The notes: generated by a model from the sequence alone, not told the origin. A stretch of DNA of 64,000 bases from a virus (IMGVR_UViG_2681813318_000003), one strand, 5' to 3'; positions 3,155 through 58,321 are shown, counted from the first letter of the stretch. Numbers and translations: made by a program.

Positions 3155-3227
3155 GTATCACCAAATAAAGAGGGCCACTAAATATAGTGGCCCATGTTAA
3201 TAGATAAGCACTTACCTATCAACGAGA

Positions 3228-3797
3228 TCAAATGAGAGACTTGAGAACATCGCGCACCTGGCGAAACTGATCTGTTTGCATACCGGTATGGATGGCAGCC
3301 ACCGCATCAGCCAAATGTTCGTTTTTGTTCACGAGAACATCCTGTCCAGATTGCTTACGACGCAGCCACGGTGCTTTAGGGTGTTTTTTCGTAGCCCACT
3401 GGATAATCTCTTCTTTCGATGTAGTAAGTTTATTGCCGACAAAATGCTTGATTTCGTTTGGAGTAACCTGGATCAATGGCTTATCCACACACGCAAGTAC
3501 ACCGATACAAATACCGTAAGACGTCTGCGAACGAGAGTTTTGGCTCCCAACCGGTAGCTCACAAAAAACCATATTTGCCTTATCAATGATTGGCTTCGCA
3601 ACACGCCATATTTCACTGGCTCGGCGCAGATCGTCACTGTTCACACGAACGGTCTTTTTGTTACTCCCCGCTTTAGTCTCAACAAGAGTAAGGCCGTGAA
3701 TCTCAAGTTCGTCCGTCTCAAGGTCTAAAGTGCCCACAGCAAGCCCAAAGTTGCTCATTGAGGGATCAACACCAACTACGCTGATTTTTTTACTCAT
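3228..3797 (-). CDS. RuvC-like Holliday junction resolvase
   Basis: 189 aa; N-terminal VVGVDPS...FG motif and C-terminal EHLADAVAAI motif typical of the RuvC/RNase H-like fold. Confidence 0.65.
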   Translation of the reverse strand: MSKKISVVGVDPSMSNFGLAVGTLDLETDELEIHGLTLVETKAGSNKKTVRVNSDDLRRASEIWRVAKPIIDKANMVFCELPVGSQNSRSQTSYGICIGVLACVDKPLIQVTPNEIKHFVGNKLTTSKEEIIQWATKKHPKAPWLRRKQSGQDVLVNKNEHLADAVAAIHTGMQTDQFRQVRDVLKSLI

Positions 3798-3806
3798 ATA
3801 GTCTCC

Positions 3807-4550
3807 TTACCATGTTCCCCATATAGGGTTTTCCAATAATCTCGCCTCCAACGAATTGGCTACTATTGCCGTTTGCAACGTTGGTTGGGGATAGTTTGCA
3901 AAGTCTGAATACTCATTTTCCTGCGTGACACGTTTATCTGCGGCATGTTTAACACCACTTGCTATGAAATGACGCATGATGCCCAACAGCCTCCGACTGT
4001 CTGCACTATCGTTTGCTAAAACATGAGGGAGCTGAAGTTCGATTTCTACCATTTCTCCATACTTACCAACAAACTGTAGTTTGTCCGCACTGTACTTTTT
4101 ATCCCTCCTTTGGATAAGGAAACCAGTAAAAGCATCACCTGGCGATGCCAAACTATCCGCCCGCTTATTGGCAAGTCGAATAAGGTTCGTGAAAGCCATA
4201 CAGAGATGCGCATCCATTGCCCCAAAGAACCCTTCGCTATTAATGTTAAGATCTTCAGTTTCATGGGTTGCGATAAACCCAGGTCCGACGTTGGGAAGAT
4301 ATCCCCCCTCAACAAAAGGATTAATCAAGATCGGCGCAATACATCCAGACGGCAGTGATTCCAAACTTTGCATCAATGGTGTCTCGGATATTAGACCAAG
4401 CAACGGGGCGAATTGTGCTTTGTCAATATTATTGCTGCCCCACAGAATACGTGGAGCCGCACTATTGGAAGTATGCCCATTGATCAGTTTTATCGACTGC
4501 ATCACTGCAAACACCTGCAAAAACTGCGAGCGGCTTAATTTAAACGACAT
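3807..4550 (-). CDS. hypothetical protein
   Basis: 247 aa ORF; start overlaps the 3' end of the upstream SbcC-like gene (operon-like packing). No recognised motif. Confidence 0.6.
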   Translation of the reverse strand: MSFKLSRSQFLQVFAVMQSIKLINGHTSNSAAPRILWGSNNIDKAQFAPLLGLISETPLMQSLESLPSGCIAPILINPFVEGGYLPNVGPGFIATHETEDLNINSEGFFGAMDAHLCMAFTNLIRLANKRADSLASPGDAFTGFLIQRRDKKYSADKLQFVGKYGEMVEIELQLPHVLANDSADSRRLLGIMRHFIASGVKHAADKRVTQENEYSDFANYPQPTLQTAIVANSLEARLLENPIWGTW

Positions 4551-6456
4551 AGCTGCGCCCCTCTTTAACTTCCAGCGTAATAGTTTCGCGGAACCATGAC
4601 TTCATCTCTTTATGGGAGATAATCAGCACAGTGCCCCGTTCGCGAGCTTTGGACTCCAGAATACCCATGAGGCGTTCAAGACCGGCTGTATCGAGTGCAT
4701 CGTCAATTTCGTCGCCGATAAACAAATCGATGTTTTTACTCGCCCGGTTACTAACCAGATCCTGCAATGCCAAAGAACACGCAATGCGAACCTTCCGCTT
4801 CTCACCACCAGAGAGGGTCTGGAACGACTTACTTGAACCTTTCTTCTGCACACTAATGTTGAATTTGTCGCGATACTCACCTTTTTTAGTGACATCCATC
4901 GTCGACCACTCAGCAGTAATATTCCCGTCAGACAACGTATTGAGATACTCGGCTGTGCGTGTATTCAGGAAAGGCGTAACAGACGTCAAAATATGAGAAC
5001 GCACCCCGGCAGGAGAGTAGACCTGACGAGCTTTTTCCAATAGCAACGTTTGTTCCTGAATAGCCTTCAACTCATCTTTTAAGGACTTGAAGGTAGACTT
5101 ACTGGATACCAGGTTATCTTCGTGTCTGGCGATAAGAGCAATAAACGGATTAATCTCTTTTGATATACGATCGACCTCAGTACGAGCACGAGTAACAAGA
5201 GACTCAATAGCAACAACCTCCTTCTCACGATGACGCAAAGATGAGAGTTGTTTAGTAAGTTCTTCAATCCGGGCAATGATAGCCGTTACATCAGGTGTCG
5301 TTTTAACAAGGGCAGACTCAATGCTTAACGCCTTCTCAAGATTCGTTTTGTGTTTAGCCATTGCCTCTGCAAGTGTCTTCGCCTGACCAATTTCCTGACG
5401 TGCTTGTTCAATGAAATTCTCCTTCACCGTTGATAGATCTTTTTCGCAGTAGGCTTTGCCACAAGTAGGGCATGGTGATCCTACTTTAGTACCAACCTCT
5501 TCTGCTTTGGTCTTAAAATTGCGCGCGCGGCTCATTGCATCAGCCTGACTATTTTCTGTAGCTTTGATGCTTGCCCGAATATCAGTTATCGCTCCACGCA
5601 CTTTGAGCAACTTGGCGTCATGTTCTTCTTTTGAGGCTAACTTTTTGCGCTCACTTTCGATTGCCTTCTCGGTATCACAGATCTGTTCGGGAAGAGTGCG
5701 GATCTCAAGTTCAACTTCTGTTAACTCAACTTCGGCACTTGCCAGCCCAGCCAGGGCATCGTCATAACGTTTAGAACGCTCTTGTTCCCATGATTCAGAG
5801 GAGGCTTTCGCGGACTCAATTTCTGACTGTGTTGCCTCAATGGTCGAGATTGTCGACTCCAATTTGGTTTTAACCACGTCCATACGTGCGGCAGCTGCGT
5901 TAGCTCGTTCACGAGCAATAGCGTAGGCGCGTGTCAGTCTGTCAACGCCAGCGGCTTCTTCTACGATGGTTTTGAGGTTTTTGTCGGACATTCCAGGTAG
6001 ATCTGGCATAGCTTCTTGGCTTGCATAGATGGAAGCCATGAAAACCTCTTTAGATGCACCGATCAGACGTTCGACGAACTCTTGCGTCAGCGCATCTTTG
6101 CCTTTCGTCATATCGCCGTCTTCACCACGAACGATAAGCCGATTTTTGAACTCTTTGTGTTTACGGTGACGAATGATCGCATATCTCTTGCCTTCATCCT
6201 CGATGGTTACTGCAACACGACAGTTCTTTTCATGGTCGGTAGACAACACATCGTCCCCCTTCACACCATGAGCTGTTTCACCATAAAGACACCACATCAG
6301 GCTATTCATTAGAGTTGACTTTCCAGAGCCATTACTTGATGCGGAACTATCATCACTATTAACGCCCTGAATTAACACTAAACCACGCTGATCTAACTCG
6401 ACCTCCGCGCTGGCGATAGCCATAAAATTCTCAACCTGGAGTTTTAAAAACTTCAT
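4540..6456 (-). CDS. sbcC: SbcC/Rad50-like DNA repair ATPase
   Basis: 638 aa; Walker A GSGKST near N-terminus, long coiled-coil with central CPTCGK zinc-hook-like CxxC, C-terminal signature and Walker B (DEIDDALD). Confidence 0.85.
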   Translation of the reverse strand: MKFLKLQVENFMAIASAEVELDQRGLVLIQGVNSDDSSASSNGSGKSTLMNSLMWCLYGETAHGVKGDDVLSTDHEKNCRVAVTIEDEGKRYAIIRHRKHKEFKNRLIVRGEDGDMTKGKDALTQEFVERLIGASKEVFMASIYASQEAMPDLPGMSDKNLKTIVEEAAGVDRLTRAYAIARERANAAAARMDVVKTKLESTISTIEATQSEIESAKASSESWEQERSKRYDDALAGLASAEVELTEVELEIRTLPEQICDTEKAIESERKKLASKEEHDAKLLKVRGAITDIRASIKATENSQADAMSRARNFKTKAEEVGTKVGSPCPTCGKAYCEKDLSTVKENFIEQARQEIGQAKTLAEAMAKHKTNLEKALSIESALVKTTPDVTAIIARIEELTKQLSSLRHREKEVVAIESLVTRARTEVDRISKEINPFIALIARHEDNLVSSKSTFKSLKDELKAIQEQTLLLEKARQVYSPAGVRSHILTSVTPFLNTRTAEYLNTLSDGNITAEWSTMDVTKKGEYRDKFNISVQKKGSSKSFQTLSGGEKRKVRIACSLALQDLVSNRASKNIDLFIGDEIDDALDTAGLERLMGILESKARERGTVLIISHKEMKSWFRETITLEVKEGRSYVV

Positions 6457-6685
6457 ATAACACCTTTGATACCGTGTGTTAGCTTTTGACCTTCTTTCAA
6501 TCTGAACTCCGTATGCGCCGGGAAGGATCTGCGCCTCAATACGCCTTTTCTGGTTAACCTTCCAAGATAAAACGCTACGGGATTTCCTTGTGGCGGGTAG
6601 GGCTTGTGAAACATCACCGTCTGGCCTCGTTCAAGTCTTTTCATCGTGATGGCAAAGTCTCGAAAGCTCCCATAACGACTTTGCC

Positions 6686-7771
6686 TCACACAGCCTCCGA
6701 ACTCTCCGCTTCGGTGAGGATTTCCTGACACAAAATATCCAACTTGCTCAGATCAAATCCGCCGTCAGTATCGTGGACAATCTTGCAATAAGCAGATACC
6801 GACTCTCCCAGGCTATCGATTTTGCTGGTTTCCGTTGTGCTTGCTGTCCCTTCCATCATTGATGACTTACGGATGAAGTTGCACACAACACCTTTTGCAC
6901 CCATTGTTTTGAGGATGTTCTGGTACTTAATGCCTTCTTCGTCGTTCTCGATTACGGCGCGGAAACGCACGTAGTTGCCGCGAATTTGGTCATCAGCAAC
7001 ATAATCTTCCAGGTTAATGAATTTAGGCGCACTGGTTTCGTAGTGACTGAAACTGCCGTCCGGGTTTACGATCATGTAACCAGCCAGAGATCCAACATCT
7101 CCCCAATTTTGATGGGTCAGTGCACCGACACTGATAACTCCAGGAATGACCTCTTTGTGGTTGTGGTAATGCCCACTAAGCACGAGACGAAAGCCGATAT
7201 CCTTTAACTCCTGCGCATCGATACCGACGTCAGGCATTGTTGGAATGGCTTTGTTAATGGATGTATGGATAACAACATCATGATTATCACCTTCTACGCT
7301 CTTACGTAATGCTTTCAGATCGCTGATAAGCTCTGCATGATTGTTACGCCAGCTAATCAGGTGGACAGTCACATCACCAATTTTTATTGAGTGTGGGCGC
7401 TTGCCACATACGATTACCACGCCGATAGAACTCAGCGATGCTGCTGCGTTGGCGCTATATACTGAATCGTTGGTTTCAAGATCGTGATTACCGGCCAGCA
7501 TTACTACTGTCAGATCAAGCTCGTTGATAATCCACTTGTACGTTTCAGTTACGTAATGCAAAACAGAAGGGGACACAGTTCCTCGGACGTGAAATGTATC
7601 ACCGGCAACCAACATGTACTTACAACCGGCCTTCTTCATGGCGATGGCTGCTTCTTTCGTTGCTTCCAACTGTATTTCAAGTCTGGAGTTAAGCCCCTCA
7701 GCGTTCGTCGTGGAGAACGCATCCCATTTGTGGTAGTGGCAGTCAGAAATGACGCCGTATGGCAAAGTCAT
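6686..7771 (-). CDS. sbcD: SbcD/Mre11-like nuclease (calcineurin-like phosphoesterase)
   Basis: Phosphoesterase motifs (DCHYH, GDTFH, GNHD). Start placed at the internal ATG (7769-7771) preceded by the conserved AAAGGAAAAACAC RBS motif, rather than the track start at 7801. Confidence 0.85.
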   Translation of the reverse strand: MTLPYGVISDCHYHKWDAFSTTNAEGLNSRLEIQLEATKEAAIAMKKAGCKYMLVAGDTFHVRGTVSPSVLHYVTETYKWIINELDLTVVMLAGNHDLETNDSVYSANAAASLSSIGVVIVCGKRPHSIKIGDVTVHLISWRNNHAELISDLKALRKSVEGDNHDVVIHTSINKAIPTMPDVGIDAQELKDIGFRLVLSGHYHNHKEVIPGVISVGALTHQNWGDVGSLAGYMIVNPDGSFSHYETSAPKFINLEDYVADDQIRGNYVRFRAVIENDEEGIKYQNILKTMGAKGVVCNFIRKSSMMEGTASTTETSKIDSLGESVSAYCKIVHDTDGGFDLSKLDILCQEILTEAESSEAV

Positions 7772-8092
7772 GTGTTTTTCCTTTGTGGTTATTTGATACA
7801 AATCTTAAGCTTGCTCGAGAGGTGAGCAACCAAGACAGCACGGCACAGAAGAACATCAACAGGCATAGTATTACAAAATAAATAGGTAAGTGAATACCTA
7901 CCAAAATTGTTGAATGGATTGCTTACAAGGCGGCTAGAGTTTCATTGAAGTGCTTAGATGTATATGGTAGGCAAAAGTCTCATCGTTACATATGAATGAA
8001 CTATCTCATGGGTCATGTATCATTTGATATTTTTATTATCAACAATTACTGTATAAGAGGAATTTTCCAAATTGAAAAAGGATTGATTATCA

Positions 8093-8350
8093 ATGGCTAT
8101 TGATGAAAGAAATATTGTTGTTGGTGGATTGTACAAGACCCATACGAATCAAGAACGGGTCGTTCTAGAAATAAAAGATGATGAAGTGAAATACGCTCCT
8201 CGAGGTGGAAATGTAGAAAATAAATTTGACCATATGCAAAAAGCCAAATTGATCACATTTGCAGGAGCATGTTCAGAAAAAATTAAAGATTTACCCTCCG
8301 ATGAATTTAATAAAATTCGACAACTATTTGTGGATAGAAAACTTATTTAA
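8093..8350 (+). CDS. hypothetical small protein
   Basis: 85 aa; AAGGA RBS about 8 nt upstream; followed by hairpin and T-run terminator at 8442-8471; plus-strand island. Confidence 0.55.
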   Translation: MAIDERNIVVGGLYKTHTNQERVVLEIKDDEVKYAPRGGNVENKFDHMQKAKLITFAGACSEKIKDLPSDEFNKIRQLFVDRKLI

Positions 8351-8441
8351 ATAGTTGTATTAGTTTTGAGGGTTTGTCTCTTAAAGGATTACCATTACTT
8401 GGATGAGTAAATTTTAAACAGGAAAAGTTCTAAAAGCCAAT

Positions 8442-8471
8442 GAGCGCCTATGTAACGAGCGCTCTTTTTTT
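8442..8471 (+). terminator. rho-independent terminator (GAGCGC/GCGCTC stem plus T7 run)
   Basis: Stem 8442-8447 / 8459-8464 followed by TTTTTTT at 8465-8471, between convergent genes. Confidence 0.55.
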
Positions 8472-8497
8472 GTTTGTGGATGGGCCTACTAAACCAT

Positions 8498-9151
8498 TTA
8501 AATCGTGTCGGAGGGCTTTTTACGCGCGTTACGCGCTGCGTTTATGCTTATGACGCCAGCTTTTGGACGTGGGTCAACAAGGTTAAGCTCTTCTTCACTG
8601 TGGTATTCGAGGTCGAACTCACGTTTTACATGTCTGATGTAGATTGCGGTGAGCAGGCTATCTTTGGTTAGGAAGTGTCCGTAGGATTTGCGGATCACTT
8701 CTTCTACCTTCTCGATTTTCTCACCCCCCATACAGAGATGATTAAACCGGCTGTGTTTTCGCAACATTTCGTCTACTGGACCTGAGTAAACCTTGTCTAC
8801 TTTCCCAAAACGGATGATTTTCCCTGTGTCTGCGGATACAAGGCAAATCAGCTTGTCTGGTGATAAACGATCTCGCCACGTCACACCTGAACGGAGTGTG
8901 TTGAAGTAGGGGGCATCCAATCCGATGATCGGTTTACGAAATGCGAGCAATGGAACGTACCTGATGCAACTGTTTAAATGAAAATTCACACCAGCCTTAT
9001 CAAGTTTAATTCTGGTTTCGTAGATCGGGCACTTCGCCGCTATACCGCAGATGTCACAAAGCAACTTCTGCTTATTCAGGTTGGAATTTGATTCGATAGT
9101 GTAGGAGCCGTCTTCAAGACGACGAACCCAGCGCGTGCGTTTTAGATCCAT
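8498..9151 (-). CDS. hypothetical protein (Cys-containing)
   Basis: 217 aa ORF ending just before the origin region; CDICG...C cluster; no confident family assignment. Confidence 0.55.
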   Translation of the reverse strand: MDLKRTRWVRRLEDGSYTIESNSNLNKQKLLCDICGIAAKCPIYETRIKLDKAGVNFHLNSCIRYVPLLAFRKPIIGLDAPYFNTLRSGVTWRDRLSPDKLICLVSADTGKIIRFGKVDKVYSGPVDEMLRKHSRFNHLCMGGEKIEKVEEVIRKSYGHFLTKDSLLTAIYIRHVKREFDLEYHSEEELNLVDPRPKAGVISINAARNARKKPSDTI

Positions 9152-9227
9152 ATGTCATTTTTCTGTGATTGTTAGCCGAGGCAACGATAACCCACCAGGT
9201 GCGCCGAAGGTAGTAAATGCCTGTTTT

Positions 9228-9310
9228 AATTATTCACATATCCACAGGATAGATCCTAATAAAGAGATCCATAGATAGATCCTTGTATAGATCAAATAAG
9301 ATCCCCGATC
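9228..9310. promoter_or_regulatory. origin-like region: two tandem DnaA boxes plus six clustered GATC sites in heptamer repeats
   Basis: TTATTCACA (9230-9238) and ATATCCACA (9238-9246) match the DnaA box consensus TTATNCACA. GATC at 9252, 9266, 9278, 9290, 9300, 9307 within (T/A)AGATCC repeats spaced about 12 bp. Confidence 0.7.
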
Positions 9311-9350
9311 GCTGTAAGCCGCGCCACGACTGGTCTGAAGCCATGTTCAT

Positions 9351-9457
9351 GTATGCTACCAGCGGTAATTGATAGTCTGTCAACGGTTCGCCGTATGCTG
9401 CCAACTGTTTTTGGTATGCTGCCAGCGGCAAATCAAGTATGCTGTCAGCGGTTGAAT
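9351..9457 (+). repeat. upstream iteron set (4-5 direct repeats, consensus GTATGCTGYCAGCGGT)
   Basis: Copies at 9351-9368, 9392-9409 (degenerate), 9414-9432, 9438-9457, plus a partial copy at 9375-9388; immediately precede the rep start. Confidence 0.8.
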
Positions 9458-9472
9458 GACAAAGGTGTCCAC

Positions 9473-10567: not shown

Positions 10568-11100
10568 TATGCTGTCAGCGGTGAAATGTATGCTATCAGC
10601 GGCTATTTTTCTGAAAAGTATGCTGTGAACGGTTAAAGATATGCTACCAGCGGTATAGTGAGATAAACGTATGCTGTGAGCGGTAAATCATCTATCACCA
10701 CTCAATGCTCTGGCATACCTCCCCAGTGGTTACTAACCTCGAAGAGTGCATTCCATATAGGTTTGCGCTCACTAACATTCTATTGCCGTTGCGCTGATTG
10801 CTTGTAGTGAAAGGCATTTATTGCCTGCTGCTCCCTGATAGAACGTATGCTGTCAGCGGTGTTTTATTGAGGAATTTTTGTTTGGATATGCTATCAGCGG
10901 TAATTAATGGTATATGTCAGACCTTCGTATGCTGCCAGCGGTAATTTTGTTCTGGTTATAACCATACCGGTACACATTATTCATGCAATGTCTTAAGTAT
11001 GCTGTCAGCGGTAAAAAATCGAGTAAAGTATGCTGTGAGCGGTGAGATAAACTCTCGATATGCTATCAGCGGTAATTGATTGTGTATGCTGTCAGCGGTG
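10568..11100 (+). repeat. downstream iteron array (about 12 direct repeats in two blocks), likely copy-control locus
   Basis: GTATGCT(G/A)(T/C)(C/G)AGCGGT copies at about 10568, 10588, 10618, 10640, 10669, then 10845, 10886, 10927, 10997, 11028, 11058, 11084; all same orientation; first copy abuts rep stop. Confidence 0.8.
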
Positions 11101-11146
11101 ACGACTATGAAATATGACTGCGGCACGTGCCGCAGTCAGTTTGCAT

Positions 11147-11870: not shown

Positions 11871-11909
11871 GATAGGTAGATACTAACTTATATAAATTTT
11901 ACTGTAAAC

Positions 11910-12185: not shown

Positions 12186-12240
12186 GTGTTTTTCCTTTTG
12201 TGGTTAGTGTTTACTTATTTTGTTAGTTATGAATAGGCGA

Positions 12241-12666: not shown

Positions 12667-12715
12667 GTTTTCTTATCCTTTTAAACAAATTGTTTTCTTA
12701 ATAAGATAATTGCGA

Positions 12716-12741
12716 TAAAAAAGGCGTCCAACTGGACGCCT
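12716..12741 (-). terminator. rho-independent terminator (GGCGTCC/GGACGCC hairpin)
   Basis: Stem 12723-12729 / 12734-12740, loop AACT; T-run on the minus strand (A-run 12716-12722 on plus); follows stop of the SPFH gene. Confidence 0.7.
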
Positions 12742-13792: not shown

Positions 13793-13855
13793 GTGTTTTC
13801 CTATGTGGTTGTTATGCGAAAATAATAAGTAAGTACTTATATATTTTCAAGAGAT

Positions 13856-17260: not shown

Positions 17261-17377
17261 GTGTTTCTCCTTGTTGTGATTTGGCCGATGGCGCTATGCG
17301 CGTTGGGCTTTCGTTCATTCGTGGCTCTTTCGAGCTGTTAAATGATAGATCAGTACTTACTTATTATCTATCAAAAA

Positions 17378-25387: not shown

Positions 25388-25638
25388 TCAATCAATCCAT
25401 TCTAACTTATACTATGGTAAGGAATACTACTAAAATTTGTATCAATACTGAATACATTCATATCATATGCAAGTTAATTTTCTTACCTATTTTGGGCTAG
25501 TTTTTCTCCGTGCAATGGCCTTTAACCGGTCTTTTAAGTGCCTATCGAAAAAAATGATAATAGCTTTACAACCCTAACCTTTGATGTAATATCGGTAAGC
25601 ACTTACCAGAGAGAATTGAACGCGCAAAGGTTGTAACC

Positions 25639-26025
25639 ATGTCTGATAACAAGATTGAATTTATAGAAAGTCGCTACGCTGCTTTTATCGCAGGGTTGAT
25701 TGAATCCTCACCTATGAGCCAGGCCCAGATAGCCAAAACAATTGGGTATAAAAACGCCAACAACCTTTCTTTAATTAAAAGCGGCAAAATTCCTTTGCCT
25801 ATCGATAAGGTTCGTCCGCTGGCGCTGGCACTGGGTATTGAGCCAAGTCGTCTTATGATGATGGTGCTGGAAGAACGCCAACCCGAACTCGCAGCATTTT
25901 TATACAAAGAAGGCACTGCTCCTCTTAACGAGGACGAAAAACAGGTTCTTGCTGCATATAACGAGCGATTCGGTAAAGAGAAAGGCGCATCACAAAAGGT
26001 TGTTGAGGCCATAAAGTCTCTATGA
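25639..26025 (+). CDS. XRE-family helix-turn-helix transcriptional regulator (candidate repressor)
   Basis: 128 aa; HTH segment MSQAQIAKTIGYKNANNLSLIKSGK; AAAGG RBS; divergent 250 bp control region upstream containing a GGTAAGCACTTACC palindrome. Confidence 0.65.
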   Translation: MSDNKIEFIESRYAAFIAGLIESSPMSQAQIAKTIGYKNANNLSLIKSGKIPLPIDKVRPLALALGIEPSRLMMMVLEERQPELAAFLYKEGTAPLNEDEKQVLAAYNERFGKEKGASQKVVEAIKSL

Positions 26026-28890: not shown

Positions 28891-28991
28891 ATTGAGTCCT
28901 TTCAAGTGAGTAAGTGTCGTGACTATAGCTAAAATGAATAAGTGAGTCATTACCTATTTAATGTGTTGGGTTACTAAGCAGAAATGGCTTT

Positions 28992-51338: not shown

Positions 51339-51430
51339 GTTGAATATGCTCCTTGATTTGGTGGGCTATCCTTGCCCACCATTAAGTATGTACATACTTA
51401 TTTTTACCGATATAAATATTTTTTTCTACA

Positions 51431-54400
51431 TTACAGAAGGCCAATTCTTACTCGTAGGACGTTGTTATCGTCATAAACGTCAATCCGCTGACCATTTATG
51501 ACCAGTCGCCCATTACCCCCGCTATTACCGTTGATCTCAAGCGTTCCATTTTTGCCGAACCGCCATCCAGATCTACCGCTAACAAAATTGGTAGATTGCA
51601 GATCGCCTACTTTTGCATTGGTGATTGTGCCATCCTTGATATACGCACCATTCATATAGGCGATACTGTTTTCGATAACAAATGGCGTGGTGATCTTCCC
51701 GTTAACAGAGTTGACCAAACCAAACCTGTCAGCCTGCACCAAAAACTGAGAAAGGCCAGTGGTGTCGATACCAAGCGCAATACCAGCAACATACTTCTGC
51801 CCTCCGCTCGTTGAAGTTTCCATTTTCAACGTCCACGCGGTTGACACTTTTTTGTTGGTATCAGCAATAGCTGTTGCCTGCTGTTGAATTGTCGCGGTAT
51901 TTCCATCCACCTCTGCTTTCAGAGTATCGATTCGCCCACTCAGAGCATTATCTGCCTGCGTTCTCGCTGTCGTTTCAGTTGTTACCGCCGCGGAAATGTT
52001 GGCTGCCGTTTGAGACTCTAAGTTTGTGATTTGAGTCGCCAATGCAGCATCTTGCTCTGTACGCGTTTTCGTTTCGGTTGCTACAGCCGCTTTAATATCC
52101 TCTTTGTATTGAGAGGTCAGCTTGGTGATCTGAGACGACAACGCCGAGTCAGCATCAGTTCGAGCCTGCGTTTCAACTGCAACGGCCGCACTAATATCTT
52201 TCGCTGTCTGTGCTTTTAAACTTGAAACCTCTTTTGTTAAAGCGGTATCACCATCAGCACGAGCCGTTGTTTCTCTGGCAAGAGATGCCTCGAGATCATT
52301 AGCTTTTGCTGTAAGAGACGAAATCTGAGTGGACAATGCACTATCGGCATCAGTCCTTGCCTTTGTCTCTACAGCAACCGCTGCGGCAATATCAGTTCCG
52401 GTTTGTGCTCGCAGGCTGTTAATTTCTCGTGAGAGCGCCTGGTCAGCACTTGCTCTGGCCTCCTGCTCCTGAGTGATGGCAGCGGATATATCACCGTCAA
52501 CCTTTGACTGAAGCTGGTTTATTTGTTTGGCTAACGCAGAGTCCCCGCTTGCTCGGGCCTCCTGCTCACTACGTATTGCAGCAGAAATATCATCATCAAC
52601 CTTTGCCTGAAGTTGGGTGATCTGGCTTGCCAGAGCCGAATCTTCCGTTGCTCGGGCTTCTTGCTCTTCCTTAATAGCTGCGACGATATCGTTGCTTACT
52701 TTCGACTCAAGCTGAGTGATCTGTGTCGTCAGAGCTTCATCGGCAGATGTGCGAGCCTCCTGCTCTGTACTAATCGCCGCGCTGATATCTCCTTCAAACT
52801 TAGATTGCAGCTGAGTGACACGCTTTGCCAACGCTTCATCGCCATCGGCACGAGCGGTGGACTCTTCCAGAATACTGGCCTTAATGTCTTCGCCAATTTC
52901 TACGCGAATTTCCTCAACCTTCGTGGCCATTGCAGACATATCATCAGCAAAGGTTTTCTGTGTTGTTGCGATCTTCGCGTTATTGACCATCTGCTTGTGC
53001 TGGTCTTCATCTTGACGAAGAGCCAGGTCAATATTTGTTTTGGCTAACGCCTCAATGTTCGTAGTCAGTTCTGCACTGGCACGATCGACCTCTGCAACCG
53101 TCTTTTTCATTTCTTCAACGGCAGCGGAGCTTTCCTCTACCGTTGACTGCAACACTTCCAGTTGTTTAGCGTTTGCAGCATCGCCTTCAACACGAGCCTC
53201 GCTTTCCTTAGCAATAAGAGCCGCAGCTTCATCTCTTGCAGCCTTTATTGCCTCGACTGTATTAGCGAGAGCTTTATCGTGTTCAGATACGGTGTTTTCG
53301 ATTTCAACAATTGCAGCATCAGTGGCATCAATTTTTTCAAACGCTTCATTGACCTTGTCGATCGTTGCCGAAACCTCACCTTTAAGCTCGGTTTGTGCGT
53401 TCTCCAAAGCATCGCTACGCTCGTTGAATTTTATTTCAAAACCCGCGAGGTTATCGCTGAACTGCTTATCTAATTCAGCTATATCTTCCTTAACGTCGTT
53501 TACCGACCCCTCCAAAGATTCGACGCTCTGGTTGATATGCTCATTTAACTCGTCAACTGCTTCTTGAGAGGCTTTGCTGTTGATGTCCTCAAGCAGAGCC
53601 TGACCAAGCTCGGAAGATGTAATTTTGCCAGCCAGGAACGACAGTACATCGCGAGTTGTCGCCTCTGTACCCAAGTTTGAGTTCGGAGGGCTTAACATAC
53701 CTCGCTTGTTCGATGCTCGAACCCAGTAATACCACGTTTCGCTATCCCCAAGACCAGCATGTGTAAAGGTGGTGCTTGCAGACTCTGCGATCAGTTTCGC
53801 CGTATCCAGATTGTTGGTCTGGGATGCGTAAACATTAATGTGATCAAGGTCTACCGAATCTGGATTAACCCAATTCAGTATCACATTACGATAGTCTCCA
53901 ACGGCCGTTAATGACGTTGGGGCATCCGGCGGTGTCATTGTGCCCAACACCTGATAAACGGTACTGATAATCTCTGTTTTTTTACCGTTGAATGAAACCG
54001 CATACAGTTGGAAGTCGTAGCGTCCATTCTCCGCGACATTAACGATTTCGTATTGCTCTTCGGTTACACGCGCCGATTGCCAGTTCGATACATTGTTTTC
54101 ATCAGAACGTCGCCAACTGATCCAATACTCTGGAGATTTTCCTTCCCATGTTGCAGTCAGTTTTACTGACAGGTTGCCCGGGCTTGAGAGATAAGTCCCT
54201 TCAGTGATTTGCAGATTAGATGGCTTGGAGTAAGTTGGGTCCAATACCGTCGTATTCTGCGGGATCAGCGTTGCACCATTGTCGATTGCCTCATATTTAG
54301 ACGGATTGTTCTCAACAGCGGTGATGTCAAAGCTACCCGGCGTTTCCCCCTGCGCGATGTTAACGATGCGAACGCGCATAGGTTCGAGATCTGGTTCTGT

Positions 54401-56161
54401 AATTGTCCAGACACCGTTCAAAACAGGCGTTTCCGCTGACGACAGGGCTTTTGAAAACGTAACCTTTGTTATGTTTTCGCCAGTTTCAAGAACATCGCGT
54501 TCAACGATTTTGCCTTCCTGATTCAATATCCGAATAAAGCTGCCGCTTTTAGCTAACGACACAGGCGCATCGAGAGTGATGCTGTTTTTGGTAAACTCCA
54601 CAATTCGACCGGAGTTACGTTTACCTGCACGATATTTGTTCTGAATCAGAACGGTTTCACCAGGCATCAGAAATGAGGCGTCTAAGCCGGCAGTAAATGT
54701 AATTACATCCGACTCCATTCTGGCGGTATACAAAAGCCACAAACCAACTCGGTGAGCCTGGCCTCGGCTTGTACATCCAAATGCTACGACTTCTGTTTTA
54801 CGCTCACCATAACGGCGCATTGCGTCCTGATCTTCAACGTATTCGATGTTTTGCTTATAACCGTCCTCCTTGTTGTTGTAGGTTACGAGCGCAACGGATG
54901 GGCGATCTTTACGCGCAGAACCTTTATAGGTAAACAGTCCATCTTTGACGTTGGAGTTGGTAAACATCATTACCGGATCTGATGGGCTATCCTGCATGAT
55001 GTTAACCATGCCACCAGCCCAAAACACCATGCCGCGGAATGCACCGGCAATATCCTGAATTAATCGGTATGCGTCTTGTCGACTGGTGATCTGCGTATTG
55101 ATTGCAAAGCGTTTCTCTTTACCCCCAAAGCCATCATCGACCTCTTCGTCACAATATCGACCAATCTGGTAGAGCTGGCCGAGGTCAATCATGGATTCCG
55201 ACACAAATTGCCCAAGACCATACCGAGTATTGGTAAGCAAATCGTAGAGAATCCACGCAGGGTTTGAAGAAGACAACAGCTTAAAAGTACCGTCCCATAC
55301 GCCGACATAAGTATTGGTGTATTCGTTGTAGTTTGACGGTACTCGGATTTTGATACCGCGCACCAAATACGAACGGGAAGGCATTGTGCTACCAAACTGC
55401 TCTGAATTGACCTTCAAGCCAACAAGAGCAGAGTTAGGGTAGTTCATTGGCGTGTCGACAATCTCACCTATGGAATCAACCCATGTGTCGTTGTAGAGGT
55501 ACTGGCTACTGTTATCATCTGTAAGACGAATCACCCTAACCTTGTATGCACGACCAGGCTTAGGTAGTTTCAGCTCATAGCTACGGTAATACACGCCTGT
55601 TTTCTTTGCCGTTAGCGTGATATCAACGCTTTTCTCACCTTCTGCCACTACATCAGAAAATGTTGCGTCTCCGTTGGCGATCTGGAATTTGTACTTCACC
55701 GTAGTGCCATTTGTATCGCCAGAGCTTTTATCAACGCTACGTAAAGAGGGGAATTTCATGATGACACGAACGCGATCAGCTTCATCGTTATCGATTGAAA
55801 CCGTAACGTCGTGTGTTTTTTTAAGCTGAATATTTACGGACTTAGGCGTTTCGACAAAATCAAAACCAGCCATTGGCGTCTGATCTTGTGAGCCGTCACG
55901 AAAATCCCATGTAATACCGCTGAAGTTGGAAGAGCCATCTTCATTCAAGATCGGTAAATCGTCGATGAAGATCGACTTTGCGCCATTTACCAGGCCACCG
56001 ATAACCCCCTCGCCAAGAAGGTCGAGGATGGCTGCCATAGCACGAGAATTGACAGTATCATCAGCTTCAACCGGGGTACGGCTGGAGCTTTTACTTTTCT
56101 TGCCACCAGCACCGGCAATAAGAAGCGGTAATTTTTTCTTCTTGAACTGTTCCATGTCCAA
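51431..56161 (-). CDS. tail tip host-specificity protein (lambda gpJ-like)
   Basis: 1576 aa; N-terminal and central regions colinear with lambda J (NSALVGLKVNSEQFG, YLVRGIKIRVPSNY, WDGTF, NPAWILYDLL, AFGCTSRGQAHRVGLWLL); about 11 tandem 28-aa helical repeats inserted; C-terminal region J-like. Confidence 0.88.
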   Translation of the reverse strand: MDMEQFKKKKLPLLIAGAGGKKSKSSSRTPVEADDTVNSRAMAAILDLLGEGVIGGLVNGAKSIFIDDLPILNEDGSSNFSGITWDFRDGSQDQTPMAGFDFVETPKSVNIQLKKTHDVTVSIDNDEADRVRVIMKFPSLRSVDKSSGDTNGTTVKYKFQIANGDATFSDVVAEGEKSVDITLTAKKTGVYYRSYELKLPKPGRAYKVRVIRLTDDNSSQYLYNDTWVDSIGEIVDTPMNYPNSALVGLKVNSEQFGSTMPSRSYLVRGIKIRVPSNYNEYTNTYVGVWDGTFKLLSSSNPAWILYDLLTNTRYGLGQFVSESMIDLGQLYQIGRYCDEEVDDGFGGKEKRFAINTQITSRQDAYRLIQDIAGAFRGMVFWAGGMVNIMQDSPSDPVMMFTNSNVKDGLFTYKGSARKDRPSVALVTYNNKEDGYKQNIEYVEDQDAMRRYGERKTEVVAFGCTSRGQAHRVGLWLLYTARMESDVITFTAGLDASFLMPGETVLIQNKYRAGKRNSGRIVEFTKNSITLDAPVSLAKSGSFIRILNQEGKIVERDVLETGENITKVTFSKALSSAETPVLNGVWTITEPDLEPMRVRIVNIAQGETPGSFDITAVENNPSKYEAIDNGATLIPQNTTVLDPTYSKPSNLQITEGTYLSSPGNLSVKLTATWEGKSPEYWISWRRSDENNVSNWQSARVTEEQYEIVNVAENGRYDFQLYAVSFNGKKTEIISTVYQVLGTMTPPDAPTSLTAVGDYRNVILNWVNPDSVDLDHINVYASQTNNLDTAKLIAESASTTFTHAGLGDSETWYYWVRASNKRGMLSPPNSNLGTEATTRDVLSFLAGKITSSELGQALLEDINSKASQEAVDELNEHINQSVESLEGSVNDVKEDIAELDKQFSDNLAGFEIKFNERSDALENAQTELKGEVSATIDKVNEAFEKIDATDAAIVEIENTVSEHDKALANTVEAIKAARDEAAALIAKESEARVEGDAANAKQLEVLQSTVEESSAAVEEMKKTVAEVDRASAELTTNIEALAKTNIDLALRQDEDQHKQMVNNAKIATTQKTFADDMSAMATKVEEIRVEIGEDIKASILEESTARADGDEALAKRVTQLQSKFEGDISAAISTEQEARTSADEALTTQITQLESKVSNDIVAAIKEEQEARATEDSALASQITQLQAKVDDDISAAIRSEQEARASGDSALAKQINQLQSKVDGDISAAITQEQEARASADQALSREINSLRAQTGTDIAAAVAVETKARTDADSALSTQISSLTAKANDLEASLARETTARADGDTALTKEVSSLKAQTAKDISAAVAVETQARTDADSALSSQITKLTSQYKEDIKAAVATETKTRTEQDAALATQITNLESQTAANISAAVTTETTARTQADNALSGRIDTLKAEVDGNTATIQQQATAIADTNKKVSTAWTLKMETSTSGGQKYVAGIALGIDTTGLSQFLVQADRFGLVNSVNGKITTPFVIENSIAYMNGAYIKDGTITNAKVGDLQSTNFVSGRSGWRFGKNGTLEINGNSGGNGRLVINGQRIDVYDDNNVLRVRIGLL

Positions 56162-56172
56162 AAAATCCTTGA

Positions 56173-56763
56173 TTACATAAGCTGGTCGATGGTGATAGAA
56201 GAACTCACGACCTGTGAGCCAACTAAAATTTCCTCGCCATAGATAAGCTGTACAGGGTTCCCCTGGTTTGTTGTGTTTTGAGGTCCATCAAAGTAATAAG
56301 AGTTCGAGTTATCCGCCTGCCTCACACTTTCGTTAGTGGCTTGCGGAGATATGATTTGCGCTATACCGCTCATCATCAGTGACAAACCGAGAGGCGCAAG
56401 AGCGGGCACCCATATCGAGGCAACCATTAATACTGCTCCAACAACCGTCTGAAACCATCCAAAAGCAGATCCACTACTTCCTCGCGGAACAGGGGTAATG
56501 CGGATTTTTGCAATATTGTCAGACTGCCCCATCATCTGATATTCACTCTCGTCCACAGACCACTTGTGGCCCTGTTTATTGGTGATCTGGATGTGGTATC
56601 TGTCATAGGTTTTGATATTGCGCTTCATCCATGCTTTAAACCCAGGCTTGTTGGCCTCAATTAAATCCAGAGCCTGTTTTGTATTACGCACCTTTAGATG
56701 CCAGTGGCGGCCAAAATGTTTGGCCATAGGGCCGCCAAGCTGCACATGAACTAACTCAGACAC
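56173..56763 (-). CDS. tail assembly protein (lambda gpI-like)
   Basis: 196 aa with central hydrophobic segment; position between K-like and J-like genes. Confidence 0.6.
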   Translation of the reverse strand: MSELVHVQLGGPMAKHFGRHWHLKVRNTKQALDLIEANKPGFKAWMKRNIKTYDRYHIQITNKQGHKWSVDESEYQMMGQSDNIAKIRITPVPRGSSGSAFGWFQTVVGAVLMVASIWVPALAPLGLSLMMSGIAQIISPQATNESVRQADNSNSYYFDGPQNTTNQGNPVQLIYGEEILVGSQVVSSSITIDQLM

Positions 56764-57575
56764 GTCTCATCTCCCTTGAGCAAGTCTCTGTGACGCAAGT
56801 GATGCGTCGTATGTTTCTGATACATCCCGCCGTAATAAGCACGACAACTAAGGCGGTCGATCTGGTGATGAAGAATCATTCCATCGCCGATATAAACCGC
56901 ACAGTGGTCAGGCATTTTTCCGTATTGGATAAAGAAGACGTCCCCACGTTGAGGTTCTGTTCCGGGCGCAAGCCGTACCAATCCTTCGTTTCGGTAGTTC
57001 TGATCGAGAATGTCGTTATCGCCGGTGTACCACGATGGAATATGCAGGTGTGCGTTCGGGTTTAGTTCGACGTTAAACTCACGCTTCAAATAGTCCCGAC
57101 ACAACATCCAGCAATCAAATACGCCAAATACATACGGTCTGCCCAGGTATGGCATTTCGAAACCATCAGGAGTGATCACATTCATCTCGCTAAAATGGAA
57201 AGGGGCATCTCCCTCAACATTCTTGCGAATAGCCAGAATCATCCACGGAACTTCCGTCGCTTCGCAGCCTGCACGATCGGCATCAGATGCTTCTGCTGAT
57301 TCATCAGTATGTGAATGCCAGATTGCGATAACATCACCCGCATCCTCTGCCGCCATAATGTCGTCAACGTGCATTACAAAAGTGTTCTGCGGGTTCTCCG
57401 AAACATTCCGCGCTTCCATAAAGCGATATTTGTCGCCATTAGTTCTAACCAGAAAGCCACACGCTTCATTAGGGTAGCGATTTATGGCGCAGAGATAGAT
57501 TTGCTGCATAACGTCAGAGCCAAGCTCAGGGATTGCTTTATTACCCATACCGCGTAGCTCCAATAAATCCGCCAA
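56751..57575 (-). CDS. tail tip assembly protein (lambda gpK-like; JAB/MPN plus NlpC/P60 domains)
   Basis: JAMM-like EACGFL...HSHT...S..D motif and NlpC/P60-type Cys (FDCWMLCRDY) / His (DHCAVYIGDGMILHH). Confidence 0.75.
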   Translation of the reverse strand: MADLLELRGMGNKAIPELGSDVMQQIYLCAINRYPNEACGFLVRTNGDKYRFMEARNVSENPQNTFVMHVDDIMAAEDAGDVIAIWHSHTDESAEASDADRAGCEATEVPWMILAIRKNVEGDAPFHFSEMNVITPDGFEMPYLGRPYVFGVFDCWMLCRDYLKREFNVELNPNAHLHIPSWYTGDNDILDQNYRNEGLVRLAPGTEPQRGDVFFIQYGKMPDHCAVYIGDGMILHHQIDRLSCRAYYGGMYQKHTTHHLRHRDLLKGDETCLS

Positions 57576-58239
57576 AATGGATCACACCGTCGGCAAAATA
57601 ATTCCGACGCGCATTACAGGCGTCATAACGTTTTGTGCAGTAATCAGCACCAGACATAGACGTCTGCTGGTTATTTTTGTCGAAATATGGACCGGTATAG
57701 CCGCATTCTGGCCCTCGGTATTTCCACGGGCAGGTGTTTTTAATGATCTGACGATACGGCAGTTGCACCCCCATCAAATCGAACACACTGGACAATTCAA
57801 ACTCGACAACCTGATGAGTTTCGAGAGTTTTCTGTTCGATAAACCACATTTCATCCGGGAAATGTTGGTTTGGATCTGCTGTTGGGTTGCCGTCTTTAAA
57901 ATTAACGGCATCGAGGAAGCGAGCCAGCGTCATCTTGCGAATAATGCGGCAGCCAACAAGATCGTCGTTCGCCTGAACTTCCGCAGAGACGGTTCCGGCA
58001 AAGTTCGATACCTGAATTTTTGGACGTGGCAACGTTCCCTGGCCAGTTTTGTCAAAGCCTGATGCTTTGATTGGCCACGGCTCGTATGTCACTCCTTGCC
58101 AGACGACCGGTTGCATCAGTTCGTTTGTTCCGGCGTGGAAGAATAGCTTCCCCCCTGAAGTTGTGTTCGACATATCCAATACGAACAACTCAATGAGTGC
58201 AGAGGGAGATAAGCTCTGAATATCAGCTTTAATTCCCAT
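57541..58239 (-). CDS. minor tail protein (lambda gpL-like)
   Basis: C-terminal Cys cluster CPWKYRGPECGYTG...C...C typical of gpL. Start set at ATG 58237-58239 (AAGGA RBS; MGIKADIQ...) instead of track start 58272. Confidence 0.7.
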   Translation of the reverse strand: MGIKADIQSLSPSALIELFVLDMSNTTSGGKLFFHAGTNELMQPVVWQGVTYEPWPIKASGFDKTGQGTLPRPKIQVSNFAGTVSAEVQANDDLVGCRIIRKMTLARFLDAVNFKDGNPTADPNQHFPDEMWFIEQKTLETHQVVEFELSSVFDLMGVQLPYRQIIKNTCPWKYRGPECGYTGPYFDKNNQQTSMSGADYCTKRYDACNARRNYFADGVIHFGGFIGATRYG

Positions 58240-58321
58240 TGTTTCATCCTTAAAATAAGTAGGCGCTAACATCCTGTCAGCGCCACAATGATAGTAAATT
58301 AGTACTTACTTATCCAGATAC

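Follow-up and report, generated by a model that had tools for sequence, protein, structure and literature searches.

The intergenic regions of a 64,000-nt viral sequence (the window, i.e., the whole stretch of DNA analysed) repeatedly carry one A/T-rich inverted repeat, raising the question of which protein reads it and with what effect. The window belongs to an SSU5-family phage-plasmid and has ca. 97% identity to the E. coli phage Cyrano/pLF82. The palindrome precedes nearly every lytic gene block of this SSU5-like element and, judged from the sequence, is most likely bound by a small repressor that the element itself encodes. Such an operator regulon has apparently not been described before; the kind of system is itself known.

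Distribution and conservation of the palindrome

A sequence-only reading had proposed at least 12 copies of an inverted repeat built on an A/T-rich half-site. The inverted repeat was real, and its actual unit is a 20-bp palindrome, ATARGTA-N6-TACYTAT (i.e., ATARGTAAGT·ACTTACYTAT; full form ATAAGTAAGT·ACTTACTTAT), flanked on both sides by an A/T-rich 3-bp extension. A scan of spacer lengths found 14 sites at a spacer of 6 and none at spacers of 0, 1, 3, 7 or 11. A weight matrix derived from the distant relative pC714_2 alone, applied to the window at a threshold of ≥ 16 bits, identified 12 strong sites. All 12 were intergenic, as the earlier reading had expected, in a window of which intergenic DNA makes up only 11.5%; Markov simulation predicted 0.045 such sites in the window as a whole, or 0.022 when run with the composition of intergenic DNA. 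With approximately four weak copies, also intergenic, they make up the window's complement. The decamer ATAAGTAAGT, with at most one mismatch, occurred 13 times against 3.55 expected, a count matched in none of 100 shuffles. The sites are as follows (strong sites scored with the pC714_2 matrix).

3200..3219: strong operator-like site ATAGATAAGCACTTACCTAT, between a ruvC-like gene and nrdA, 23.7 bits
7882..7901: strong site upstream of an sbcD-like gene, 19.2 bits
11872..11891: strong site abutting the start of a small ORF (11691-11870) at the head of a Cra-like gene cluster, 20.0 bits
13825..13844: strong site between recA-like and membrane-protein genes, 23.3 bits
17345..17364: strong site upstream of a gp32-like SSB gene, 21.0 bits
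22931..22950: weaker operator-like site TATCGTAAGTGGTTACTTAT, upstream of a cobS-like gene, 11.6 bits (window matrix)
25591..25610: weak variant ATCGGTAAGCACTTACCAGA whose 14-bp core is a perfect palindrome, 10.4 bits (window matrix)
28938..28957: strong site in the divergent gap between a glutaredoxin gene (minus strand) and a 445-aa ORF (28992-30329, plus strand), 19.4 bits
31911..31930: strongest site, directly after gene 31941-32231 and ca. 750 nt upstream of the tRNA genes clustered on the minus strand, 26.7 bits
35270..35289: strong site upstream of gene 34446-35228, 17.7 bits
40537..40556: strong site 12 nt ahead of the start of gene 39784-40524, with a ribosome-binding site directly after it, 21.5 bits
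40661-40680: weaker copy near the preceding site, 13.9 bits
45998..46017: strong site upstream of the holin gene, 16.5 bits
51382..51401: strong site between a J-like tail gene and the tail-fibre gene, 19.1 bits
58294..58313: strong site between tail genes M and L, 22.9 bits

Each of the 12 places listed in the earlier reading holds the whole element or part of it. Eight are strong sites, with coordinates a few bases off, and those at 12205, 22936, 25598 and 40660 are weak or half sites; the count of at least 12 stood, with the strong sites at 7882, 11872, 28938 and 45998 having been overlooked. The proposed location 15–110 nt upstream of minus-strand starts was roughly right (1–129 nt in the Cyrano orthologues). 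A preceding terminator was confirmed at some sites, such as 13825..13844 (terminator at 13860-13880), and at 3200 and 58294 a terminator-like hairpin comes after the motif instead.

The element's co-directional lytic genes form a block of ca. 85 kb that includes nucleotide metabolism, replication, recombination, tRNA, head, tail and lysis genes. Cyrano and SSU5 carry 20–21 strong sites each and pC714_2 carries 19, and 17 gene junctions retain a site in all three. For instance, the site at 3200..3219 has orthologues in Cyrano, SSU5 and pC714_2, that at 7882 corresponds to Cyrano 63199, SSU5 63080 and pC714_2 1092, and that at 45998 to Cyrano 26657 and SSU5 27474; even the cobS-like junction has weaker sites in all three relatives. 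Site identity was 0.89 where that of the flanks was 0.5, the corresponding values for the distant relative being 0.71 and 0.35, with the distant Klebsiella relative and SSU5 keeping sites at the same junctions despite diverged flanks.

The motif is A/T-rich and intergenic, and one consensus is common to elements from Escherichia, Salmonella and Klebsiella, as would be expected if a host protein (a global regulator or nucleoid protein) bound the sites or if they were a compositional by-product of A/T-rich intergenic DNA. However, intergenic composition accounts for 0.02 sites against the 12 observed, and two lineages in A. baumannii bear different variants of the motif. To our knowledge, the consensus is also unlike the LexA, Fur, TyrR and CRP boxes. 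We therefore regard a host or compositional origin as very improbable.

Symmetry of the site

The profile over 60 sites is a symmetric 20–26 bp palindrome with half-site centres 10 bp apart and flanks that are symmetric as well. Such a sequence could fold into a 7–10 bp A/U-rich hairpin, and many copies lie a few bases past a stop codon and just ahead of a ribosome-binding site, so that a role in the transcript (RNA processing or stabilisation, a translational operator, or weak termination between cistrons) has to be weighed. Among the non-Watson-Crick pairs in the 60 sites, however, the G-U type (55) was as frequent as the A-C type (57), and no covariation between the palindrome halves was found over these sites (Fisher's test on variable pairs, p = 0.045 to 0.71, uncorrected). 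Independent halves and the absence of a G-U bias point to a double-stranded DNA site for a dimer rather than an RNA hairpin, in support of the dimeric regulator originally suggested from the symmetry. An Rfam scan matched tRNAs only (genes at 30509-31162, minus strand), and the same palindrome occurs at the XRE promoter, which is transcribed in the opposite direction. An RNA function thus appears hardly credible.

Overlap with predicted promoters

Sequences resembling sigma-70 promoters, called as consensus matches, overlap most of the sites; they lie on the gene strand and occur in several registers. Cases in the window are listed below.

3222-3194, minus strand: predicted promoter TTGATA(3222-3217)-17-TAACAT(3199-3194), enclosing site 3200..3219
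11872..11891: site overlapped by promoter-like TTTACA-17-TAGTAT and TTTATA-16-TATCAT
13850-13822: predicted TTGAAA(13850-13845)-17-TATTAT(13827-13822), its spacer occupied by site 13825..13844; best match in the first 20 kb (10/12 positions)
17345..17364: site within the spacer of predicted TAGATA-17-TATCAT
28938..28957: site with minus-strand promoter-like ATGACT-17-TATAGT
58316-58288: predicted TGGATA-17-TATCAT, with site 58294..58313 in its spacer and a terminator-like hairpin (58284-58262) starting 4 nt past its -10

In every enterobacterial genome, promoter scores near the palindrome favoured the gene strand over the opposite one (p = 0.004, 0.038, 7e-5 and 0.034). The pooled means were 7.6 and 5.7, respectively (p = 7e-7), and 60% of gene-strand scores exceeded the random 95th percentile compared with 17% on the opposite strand; promoter scores are inflated because the motif ends (ATA…TAT) are themselves -10-like. 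The same strand comparison gave no significant difference for the Acinetobacter element (p = 0.22), and promoter predictions were poor at four window sites (35270, 40537, 45998 and 51382). In several orthologues the start codon follows the motif by only 1–17 nt, and such sites cannot lie upstream of a leader holding the ribosome-binding site.

Overlap of this kind could mean activation as well as repression. The palindrome might bind an activator of the lytic cycle or belong to a phage-specific promoter, the factor switching the lytic units on and, by occupying the XRE promoter, XRE off. No fixed, conserved -35 accompanies the sites; the palindrome centre lies near -20 for a -10 at motif positions 18–23, a superficially P1-late-like arrangement; structural genes bear sites, as expected of late promoters; and the lytic isolate SSU5, without XRE, retains them. 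Nevertheless, the apparent -10 signal (T at position 23) simply mirrors the A at position -3, and the site and promoter meet in at least four registers, a variability that activation does not tolerate and that fits repression. Where the site fills the spacer, the spacer has the optimal length of 17 bp and is not MerR-like. The same site, moreover, occurs at replication and structural genes alike, and the copy at the XRE promoter is placed where a bound protein would repress. We accordingly consider an activator improbable.

The XRE protein as candidate repressor

The sequence-only reading had named a small XRE-type protein as the possible binder. The relevant features are as follows.

25565..25592, plus strand: predicted XRE promoter TTTACA(25565-25570)-16-TAATAT(25587-25592), read from the sequence and kept in pHCM2 and a Klebsiella plasmid
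25639..26025, plus strand: gene for a 128-aa HTH protein of the XRE type that shares its whole sequence with Cyrano CYRAN_45 (100% identity, tblastn)
26020-27123: adjoining integrase gene

The XRE gene is opposite in direction to the lytic genes. Its product matched PHROG 8 ('transcriptional regulator') at 1.3e-11 and, among Pfam families, HTH_19 at 7.8e-4, with HTH_19, HTH_37 and HTH_3 all under the gathering score. The core of its AlphaFold model (pLDDT > 85) matches C.AhdI, 434 Cro, 434 repressor, SinR and HigA at target TM-scores of 0.7–0.8, among them 0.80 for C.AhdI and 0.78 for 434 Cro; the model thus indicates a cI/Cro-like five-helix HTH DNA-binding domain. The domain scan of the 128-aa protein gave no Peptidase_S24 match. 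This self-cleavage domain is not universal among cI/Cro-type repressors, and without it induction must take another route. Cyrano is inducible by ciprofloxacin. RNA-seq of an LF82 lysogen showed CYRAN_45 RNA at 10-fold over the prophage background, and that study treats the protein as the master repressor (PMC9928086).

The weak palindrome at 25591..25610 lies across the -10 of the predicted XRE promoter and its expected start point, an arrangement that is the same in E. coli, pHCM2 and Klebsiella (three enterobacterial lineages), and from its position it is a candidate autoregulatory operator of XRE. No tandem operator array of the OR1-3 type was seen at the repressor gene. XRE homologues occur in 865–1013 SSU5-like plasmids, with a genus distribution like that of the SSB gene, and only on contigs of ca. 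100–116 kb. The gene is near-universal in plasmid-form relatives and absent only from SSU5, which lacks the XRE-integrase module yet keeps the sites. An Aeromonas relative has only a few weak sites and an XRE gene co-directional with the lytic genes, which counts against the XRE model.

Another element-encoded regulator could instead bind the operators, with XRE only a target or sharing the sites with a Cro-like partner. Candidates are the winged-helix proteins encoded at 32377-32592 (= CYRAN_37) and by CYRAN_123 (outside the window), as well as the 70-aa Cro-like product of 25175-25387. The site at the XRE promoter is equally compatible with control of XRE by another factor, and a second dispersed palindrome (motif B, below) requires a second binder anyway. 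CYRAN_123 has a weak LexA-type winged-helix match and is unusually conserved (78% identity in pC714_2; SSB 42%), matching the unchanged operator. On the other hand, these small candidate proteins are encoded within the lytic block, downstream of motif-bearing promoters, and would thus be off in lysogeny, whereas only XRE is both on the opposite strand and transcribed in the lysogen. The 70-aa gene is absent from pC714_2 and SSU5, both of which keep the sites, and the HTH matches of the rival small proteins fall far under the cut-offs. A different element-encoded binder is therefore unlikely in our view. The element also encodes ParB-like proteins, none of which is tied to the 20-bp palindrome by evidence.

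Site variants in Acinetobacter and a second palindrome

Two Acinetobacter lineages carry altered forms of the motif in the same 20-bp frame: ATCAGTCAGT·ACTGACTGAT in the first (ca. 30 copies) and ATTAGTAAGC·GCTTACTAAT in the second (11 copies in 40 kb). The occurrence of two variants within one host species, A. baumannii, argues for an element-encoded binder. The XRE recognition helices differ in both lineages, and partial variant copies lie at the XRE promoters of both. This co-change of helix and operator is not specific to XRE, since all proteins differ between the lineages. Compared at sequence level, the paired operator and recognition-helix variants look like immunity types. Motif B, AAACAAnTTGTTT, is likewise operator-like, and XRE could in principle bind it instead of the 20-bp palindrome.

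Proposed regulatory model

We propose that the palindromes are probably operators for a dimeric, element-encoded repressor, with the 128-aa XRE protein at 25639-26025 as the most likely binder. The initial suggestion of an XRE operator regulon is thus supported indirectly, by the symmetry of the motif, the footprint, the promoter overlap, the copy at the XRE promoter, expression in the lysogen, the gene's distribution and the co-change in Acinetobacter. In the plasmid-prophage state, XRE would occupy ca. 20–25 sites across the ca. 85-kb co-directional lytic block. Every site would lie over a host sigma-70-type promoter, covering its spacer, its -35, or its -10 together with the start point. 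An occupied site would thereby exclude RNA polymerase, and each transcription unit would be silenced separately. The lower-affinity copy at the XRE promoter could cap the repressor level through negative autoregulation. Upon DNA damage, the repressor would be removed by a further step and all units would fire; until then, silencing by XRE may keep a 100-kb virus quiet during plasmid life. Direct repressor operators within late structural operons are unusual among temperate phages, which counts against this model.

A broader reading, in which XRE gates every unit and is combined with hetero-immunity classes, motif B and insulated units, is possible but rather doubtful. If it holds, more than 20 promoters, including those for head, tail and lysis, would be gated directly and no late activator or antiterminator cascade would operate. 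Hetero-immunity classes in the SSU5/AB supergroup would be set by two altered bases in each half-site (TAAG to TCAG, or a changed end, …AAGC), motif B would gate accessory or early genes, and some units would be insulated because their transcripts start inside an upstream terminator stem. Regulation would then be unusually flat and modular for a large temperate phage.

Comparison with known systems

The analogy originally drawn to the C1 operators of P1 held in its logic. As in P1, which has at least 17 C1 operators, one proposed repressor of a phage-plasmid would serve many unlinked operators over a genome of ca. 100 kb rather than one immunity region. The components differ, however: the candidate here has an XRE/cI-Cro-type HTH and is not homologous to C1, and no C1-like protein emerged from scanning the candidate regulators against the library or from the annotation tables of relatives. 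The P1 C1 operator is an asymmetric 17-bp sequence (ATTGCTCTAATAAATTT), whereas the proposed operator here is a symmetric 20-bp palindrome of different sequence. The sites here also lie inside the head, tail and lysis blocks, whose counterparts in P1 depend on Lpa. P1 late promoters consist of a -10 and a palindrome near -22 and are Lpa-dependent; they similarly place a dispersed palindrome beside a -10-like hexamer before the morphogenetic genes of a phage-plasmid. Their geometry is fixed, whereas the register varies here and the apparent -10 belongs to the symmetry of the palindrome.

In RK2, KorB and KorA likewise act through one palindrome that recurs a dozen times or more along the plasmid backbone, at the promoters of many operons, achieving coordinate silencing. 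KorB, a CTP-dependent clamp of the ParB family, is able to act at a distance, whereas the sites here overlap predicted promoters and a small HTH protein is the preferred binder. Lambdoid and 434 cI/Cro systems have two tripartite operator clusters in place of the ca. 20–25 genome-wide operators proposed here, and lambda cI differs from the XRE protein, which lacks the S24 self-cleavage domain. They nevertheless share with the present element the HTH core fold (as modelled), palindromic operators whose half-sites are spaced by one helical turn, a copy at the predicted promoter of the repressor, a repressor gene opposite to the lytic genes, and sequence variants resembling immunity types.

Identity and gene organisation of the element

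Over its first 25 kb, the window was 96.8% identical to Escherichia phage Cyrano (phage-plasmid pLF82 of E. coli LF82) and 78.6% identical to Salmonella phage SSU5. According to the annotation of the Cyrano and SSU5 records, the lytic genes form a long co-directional minus-strand block. The genes of the window are ordered as follows:

First part: nrdA, ruvC, sbcCD, repA (plus strand), recA-like, exonuclease, gp32-like SSB, uvsY, dnaE, cobS/cobT-like
Middle, after the cobS/cobT-like genes: XRE regulator (plus strand) and integrase
Last part: tRNAs, ligase, primase, helicase, parA, lysis genes, tail fibre, J, K, L, M, tape-measure gene

Its gene content and relatedness to Cyrano and SSU5 place the window in the SSU5 supergroup of phage-plasmids reported by Pfeifer et al. 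(PMC7969092). Several differences from Cyrano were observed. The recA-like gene encodes 357 aa in the window (13885-14958) versus a 2340-nt CDS in Cyrano (L001:15700-18039), suggesting an intein or insertion in the latter. The hicAB genes of Cyrano were not present in the window, and the following were extra relative to Cyrano:

27446-27862, YafO-type toxin gene
28992-30329, plus strand, ORF with no Pfam match
35955-37145, plus strand, ORF with Sel1 repeats
40799-41872, plus strand, ORF

Outside the window, the Cyrano gene CYRAN_114 (L003:27677-28198), annotated as 'transcriptional regulator', gave a full-length match (1e-80) to Pfam Flag1_repress, that is, FljA, a post-transcriptional repressor of flagellin; its C-terminal part is Hfq/LSM-like.

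A dispersed intergenic palindrome

The sequence-only reading had described a repeat of the form TAAGTA..TACTTA at 12 intergenic places. The element or part of it was present at all 12, and its palindromic nature held, but the true unit proved longer and more regular, with the full consensus ATAAGTAAGT·ACTTACTTAT. Scanning the window for ATA[AG]GTA-N(d)-TAC[CT]TAT with at most two mismatches returned 14 sites at d = 6 as well as 12 at d = 2, whereas d = 0, 1, 3, 7 and 11 gave none. The half-site is a tandem TAAG-TAAG, so that most of the d = 2 sites coincide with those at d = 6.

To avoid circularity, a weight matrix was built solely from the sites of pC714_2, a distant Klebsiella plasmid with conserved synteny, whose SSB shares only 42% identity with that encoded in the window. 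With a threshold of at least 16 bits, this matrix identified 12 sites in the window, all of them intergenic (intergenic DNA, 11.5% of the window), compared with 0.045 per window expected from first-order Markov simulation and 0.022 at intergenic composition. These sites include 3200-3219, 13825-13844 and 31911-31930. Of the originally listed sites, eight were strong, whereas those at 12205, 22936, 25598 and 40660 were weak or half sites, and strong sites at 7882, 11872, 28938 and 45998 had been overlooked. The same motif was recovered by a de novo palindrome search of Cyrano.

Conservation and symmetry of the sites

Whole genomes contained similar numbers of strong sites (Cyrano, 20; SSU5, 21; pC714_2, 19), nearly all within the block of lytic genes. 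Across the three genomes, 17 or more sites share their gene junction, including those before the portal gene, inside its end, following the capsid gene, and in front of the tail genes, holin, SSB, sbcD, nrdA, thyX, dam and further genes. In site-anchored alignments, identity between Cyrano and SSU5 was 0.89 in the site versus ca. 0.5 in the flanks, and against pC714_2 it was 0.71 versus ca. 0.35.

Among 60 sites, base preferences in the left half equalled those at the mirror positions throughout, and the symmetry reached three bases into both flanks (WWR-…-YWW). Such a palindrome could also be an RNA element folding in the transcript. However, G-U-type and A-C-type mirror pairs were equally frequent (55 versus 57), no covariation was found among the variable mirror pairs, and an Rfam scan matched tRNAs as the only families. 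The RNA hairpin was rejected on these three grounds, and an RNA element is very improbable. Together with the symmetry, they fit the expectation for a dimeric protein on double-stranded DNA and not that for a functional transcript hairpin. A directional promoter element, with a better-kept left half and a T at position 23 as a fixed -10, was also considered and dropped, as the 60-site motif is symmetric and the T at 23 mirrors the A at -3.

Predicted promoters at the sites

The symmetry of the site makes the opposite strand a built-in control for promoter scores. When the best sigma-70 score was taken from 80 nt around the centre of each site, it was higher on the gene strand than on the opposite strand in Cyrano (p = 0.004), SSU5 (p = 0.038), pC714_2 (p = 7e-5) and the 12 sites of the window under study (p = 0.034). 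Pooled means were 7.6 on the gene strand and 5.7 on the opposite strand (p = 7e-7), with 60% and 17% of the 80-nt segments, respectively, above the 95th percentile of random segments. In the first Acinetobacter element (NZ_CP156934.1), the strand asymmetry did not reach significance. A simple consensus scanner agreed with the gene-strand preference in the enterobacterial genomes: although matches to the sigma-70 consensus were rarer than in shuffles (18 versus 28.3 in 1-20000; 10 versus 29.6 in 40001-60000), a gene-strand match was present at four of the five sites within 1-20000, as well as at 58294. The register between site and predicted promoter varied, with four arrangements:

13850-13822, TTGAAA-17-TATTAT, site fills the 17-bp spacer (predicted)
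3222-3194, nrdA, first three site bases complete a TTGATA -35 (predicted)
Right half of the site provides a TTTACT -35 (predicted)
Site lies just downstream of a -10 (predicted)

These promoters are predictions from sequence; four sites in the window had weak promoter calls, and in several orthologues the site lies only 1-17 nt from the start codon. An activator site or a phage-specific promoter would be an alternative reading of the palindromes. A register that varies is common where repression is steric and is not easily squared with activation, and a P1-late-like or MerR-like activator geometry was rejected given this variability and the 17-bp spacers. We regard this alternative as improbable. 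Under repression, the overlap of each operator with a sigma-70-type promoter would silence the lytic genome unit by unit.

Terminator-like hairpins were observed beside two of the predicted promoters, beginning 1-4 nt past the predicted -10:

3172-3193, minus strand, hairpin at the 3200 promoter
58262-58284, minus strand, hairpin at the 58294 promoter

A transcript from either promoter would start within the 5' arm of the hairpin and avoid termination, whereas transcription reading through from upstream would be halted. These hairpins may be a way to insulate transcription units.

Variants of the proposed operator in related lineages

A de novo palindrome search of the A. baumannii phage-plasmid NZ_CP156934.1 revealed ca. 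30 dispersed copies of ATCAGTCAGT·ACTGACTGAT, which retain the 20-bp frame and tandem-tetramer architecture but have A->C at positions 3 and 7, mirrored on the other side, and often lie between TTGAAA and TATACT. A second A. baumannii lineage (NZ_CP131894.1) carried 11 copies of ATTAGTAAGC·GCTTACTAAT in 40 kb. The recognition helices of the XRE proteins in these two lineages (RPNVLSMIKSGE and NQNMVSFIVRGK) differ from the enterobacterial one, and partial copies of the local variant are located at both XRE promoters. An Aeromonas relative had only one strong and three weak sites in 40 kb, and IMG/VR loci around XRE homologues yielded enterobacterial lineages only, with no new specificity class.

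The variants look like immunity types. Two variants occur within one host species, which speaks against recognition by a host factor, a reading that is very improbable. The variants support a co-evolving binder encoded by the element, without singling out XRE because all proteins differ between these lineages; an element-encoded binder other than XRE is considered unlikely.

In the A. baumannii element p2008C02-166-1, a sigma-70-family sigma factor is encoded between the cobS-like gene and dnaE (L097:15110-15775), a position at which enterobacterial elements have only a 62-aa ORF. This lineage also has a further repeat, TTTTTGTACCGTTA (7-9 copies in 40 kb), which could represent promoters of this sigma factor.

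XRE as the candidate repressor

The sequence-only reading had proposed operators of a dimeric regulator, possibly the XRE protein. The best explanation of the palindromes is that they are operators of the lysogeny repressor of the element, each of which would overlap a sigma-70-type promoter, with XRE as the most likely binder; we consider this reading reasonably probable. XRE (128 aa, 25639-26025, plus strand) is encoded by the only regulator-like gene on the strand opposite the lytic block. In the LF82 lysogen, published RNA-seq showed its gene transcribed 10-fold over the prophage background, the authors listed it as the reference master repressor, and ciprofloxacin induced Cyrano 39-fold (PMC9928086). 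The AlphaFold model (pLDDT 74.6, core >85) matched cI/Cro-type HTH proteins; XRE had no S24 domain, and a sequence search of solved structures found nothing.

The role of XRE was initially doubted, since tblastn found no homologue in SSU5 although the sites are kept there. The doubt was withdrawn because XRE is near-universal in plasmid-form relatives and SSU5 is without the entire module that comprises XRE, the 70-aa gene and integrase (SSU5 record, ca. 41.8-42.8 kb, versus window 25175-27123), which almost all plasmid-form relatives carry. Integrase-adjacent homologues were found in 865 plasmid records, spread over genera just as the SSB gene is, the Acinetobacter protein matched 1013 records, and homologues in a large protein collection were only on contigs of ca. 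100-116 kb. SSU5 was isolated on Salmonella and is used in phage cocktails; the absence of the module fits a repressor-less derivative. An argument against XRE from its divergence (identity down to 48-66%) also failed: enterobacterial variants of 48-100% overall identity have a conserved HTH and recognition helix (…GYKNANNLSLIKSGK…), consistent with a common enterobacterial operator.

A weak site at 25591-25610 accompanies the predicted promoter of XRE itself:

25565-25570 and 25587-25592, plus strand, TTTACA-16-TAATAT, XRE promoter predicted from sequence

ATCGGTAAGCACTTACCAGA overlaps and then directly follows this promoter; it represents the central 14 bp of the motif with the outer ATA/TAT absent, and the arrangement is kept in pHCM2 and a Klebsiella plasmid. 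Placing a weaker operator over the promoter of the repressor gene is the classical arrangement for negative autoregulation, through which the repressor would feed back on itself. Between the 70-aa gene and XRE, the divergent region (25388-25500) also contains isolated half-site-like elements (GGTAAGG at ca. 25416; CTTACCTAT at ca. 25483) and a block, TTGTATCAATACTGAATACAT, conserved in pHCM2, which may be further switch elements.

A second dispersed palindrome and translation starts

Another palindrome, AAACAAnTTGTTT (motif B), occurs in the window and at ca. 25-30 copies per genome, densely in the accessory region and with many copies in the Cyrano segments L003 and L002. Copies in the window include:

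764-776, motif B
12683-12695, motif B
25096-25108, motif B before cobT
39760-39772, motif B before the helicase gene
42996-43008, motif B before parA

It usually has AGA upstream and is usually read as AGAAAACAAnTTGTTT with upstream (A/T)T(A/T)ACACCAA; many sites have a ribosome-binding site and a start codon shortly downstream. In the accessory region, pairs 51 nt apart lie in opposite orientation on either side of an extended -10 (TGnGATAAT), and terS is preceded by two direct copies and a terminator-like hairpin. Motif B is probably a second operator family. The translation-start context (A)GGAAAACACATG(A) was strongly conserved on the gene strand across the window, and AAAACACATG occurred 6, 9 and 12 times in the window, Cyrano and pC714_2, respectively, on the gene strand in every case.

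Significance and comparison with known systems

SSU5-type phage-plasmids are among the commonest large plasmids in clinical Enterobacteriaceae; pHCM2 (S. Typhi), pMT1 (Y. pestis), pLF82 and the pKpn and pSLy3 groups are examples, and A. baumannii often carries related elements. With a defined operator sequence, a candidate repressor identified by name and ca. 20 promoters predicted to form its regulon, silencing and induction of these elements become directly testable. The operator variants predict which elements should show mutual immunity, which bears on co-residence, resistance-gene transfer and the use of SSU5-like phages in cocktails, and the sites offer a simple signature by which to annotate transcription units of SSU5-type genomes.

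A literature search found the motif strings or an SSU5-family operator described nowhere in the searchable literature. The proposed logic is like that of the dispersed C1 operators of P1, and XRE is of the same protein family as the regulators of cI/Cro-type systems.
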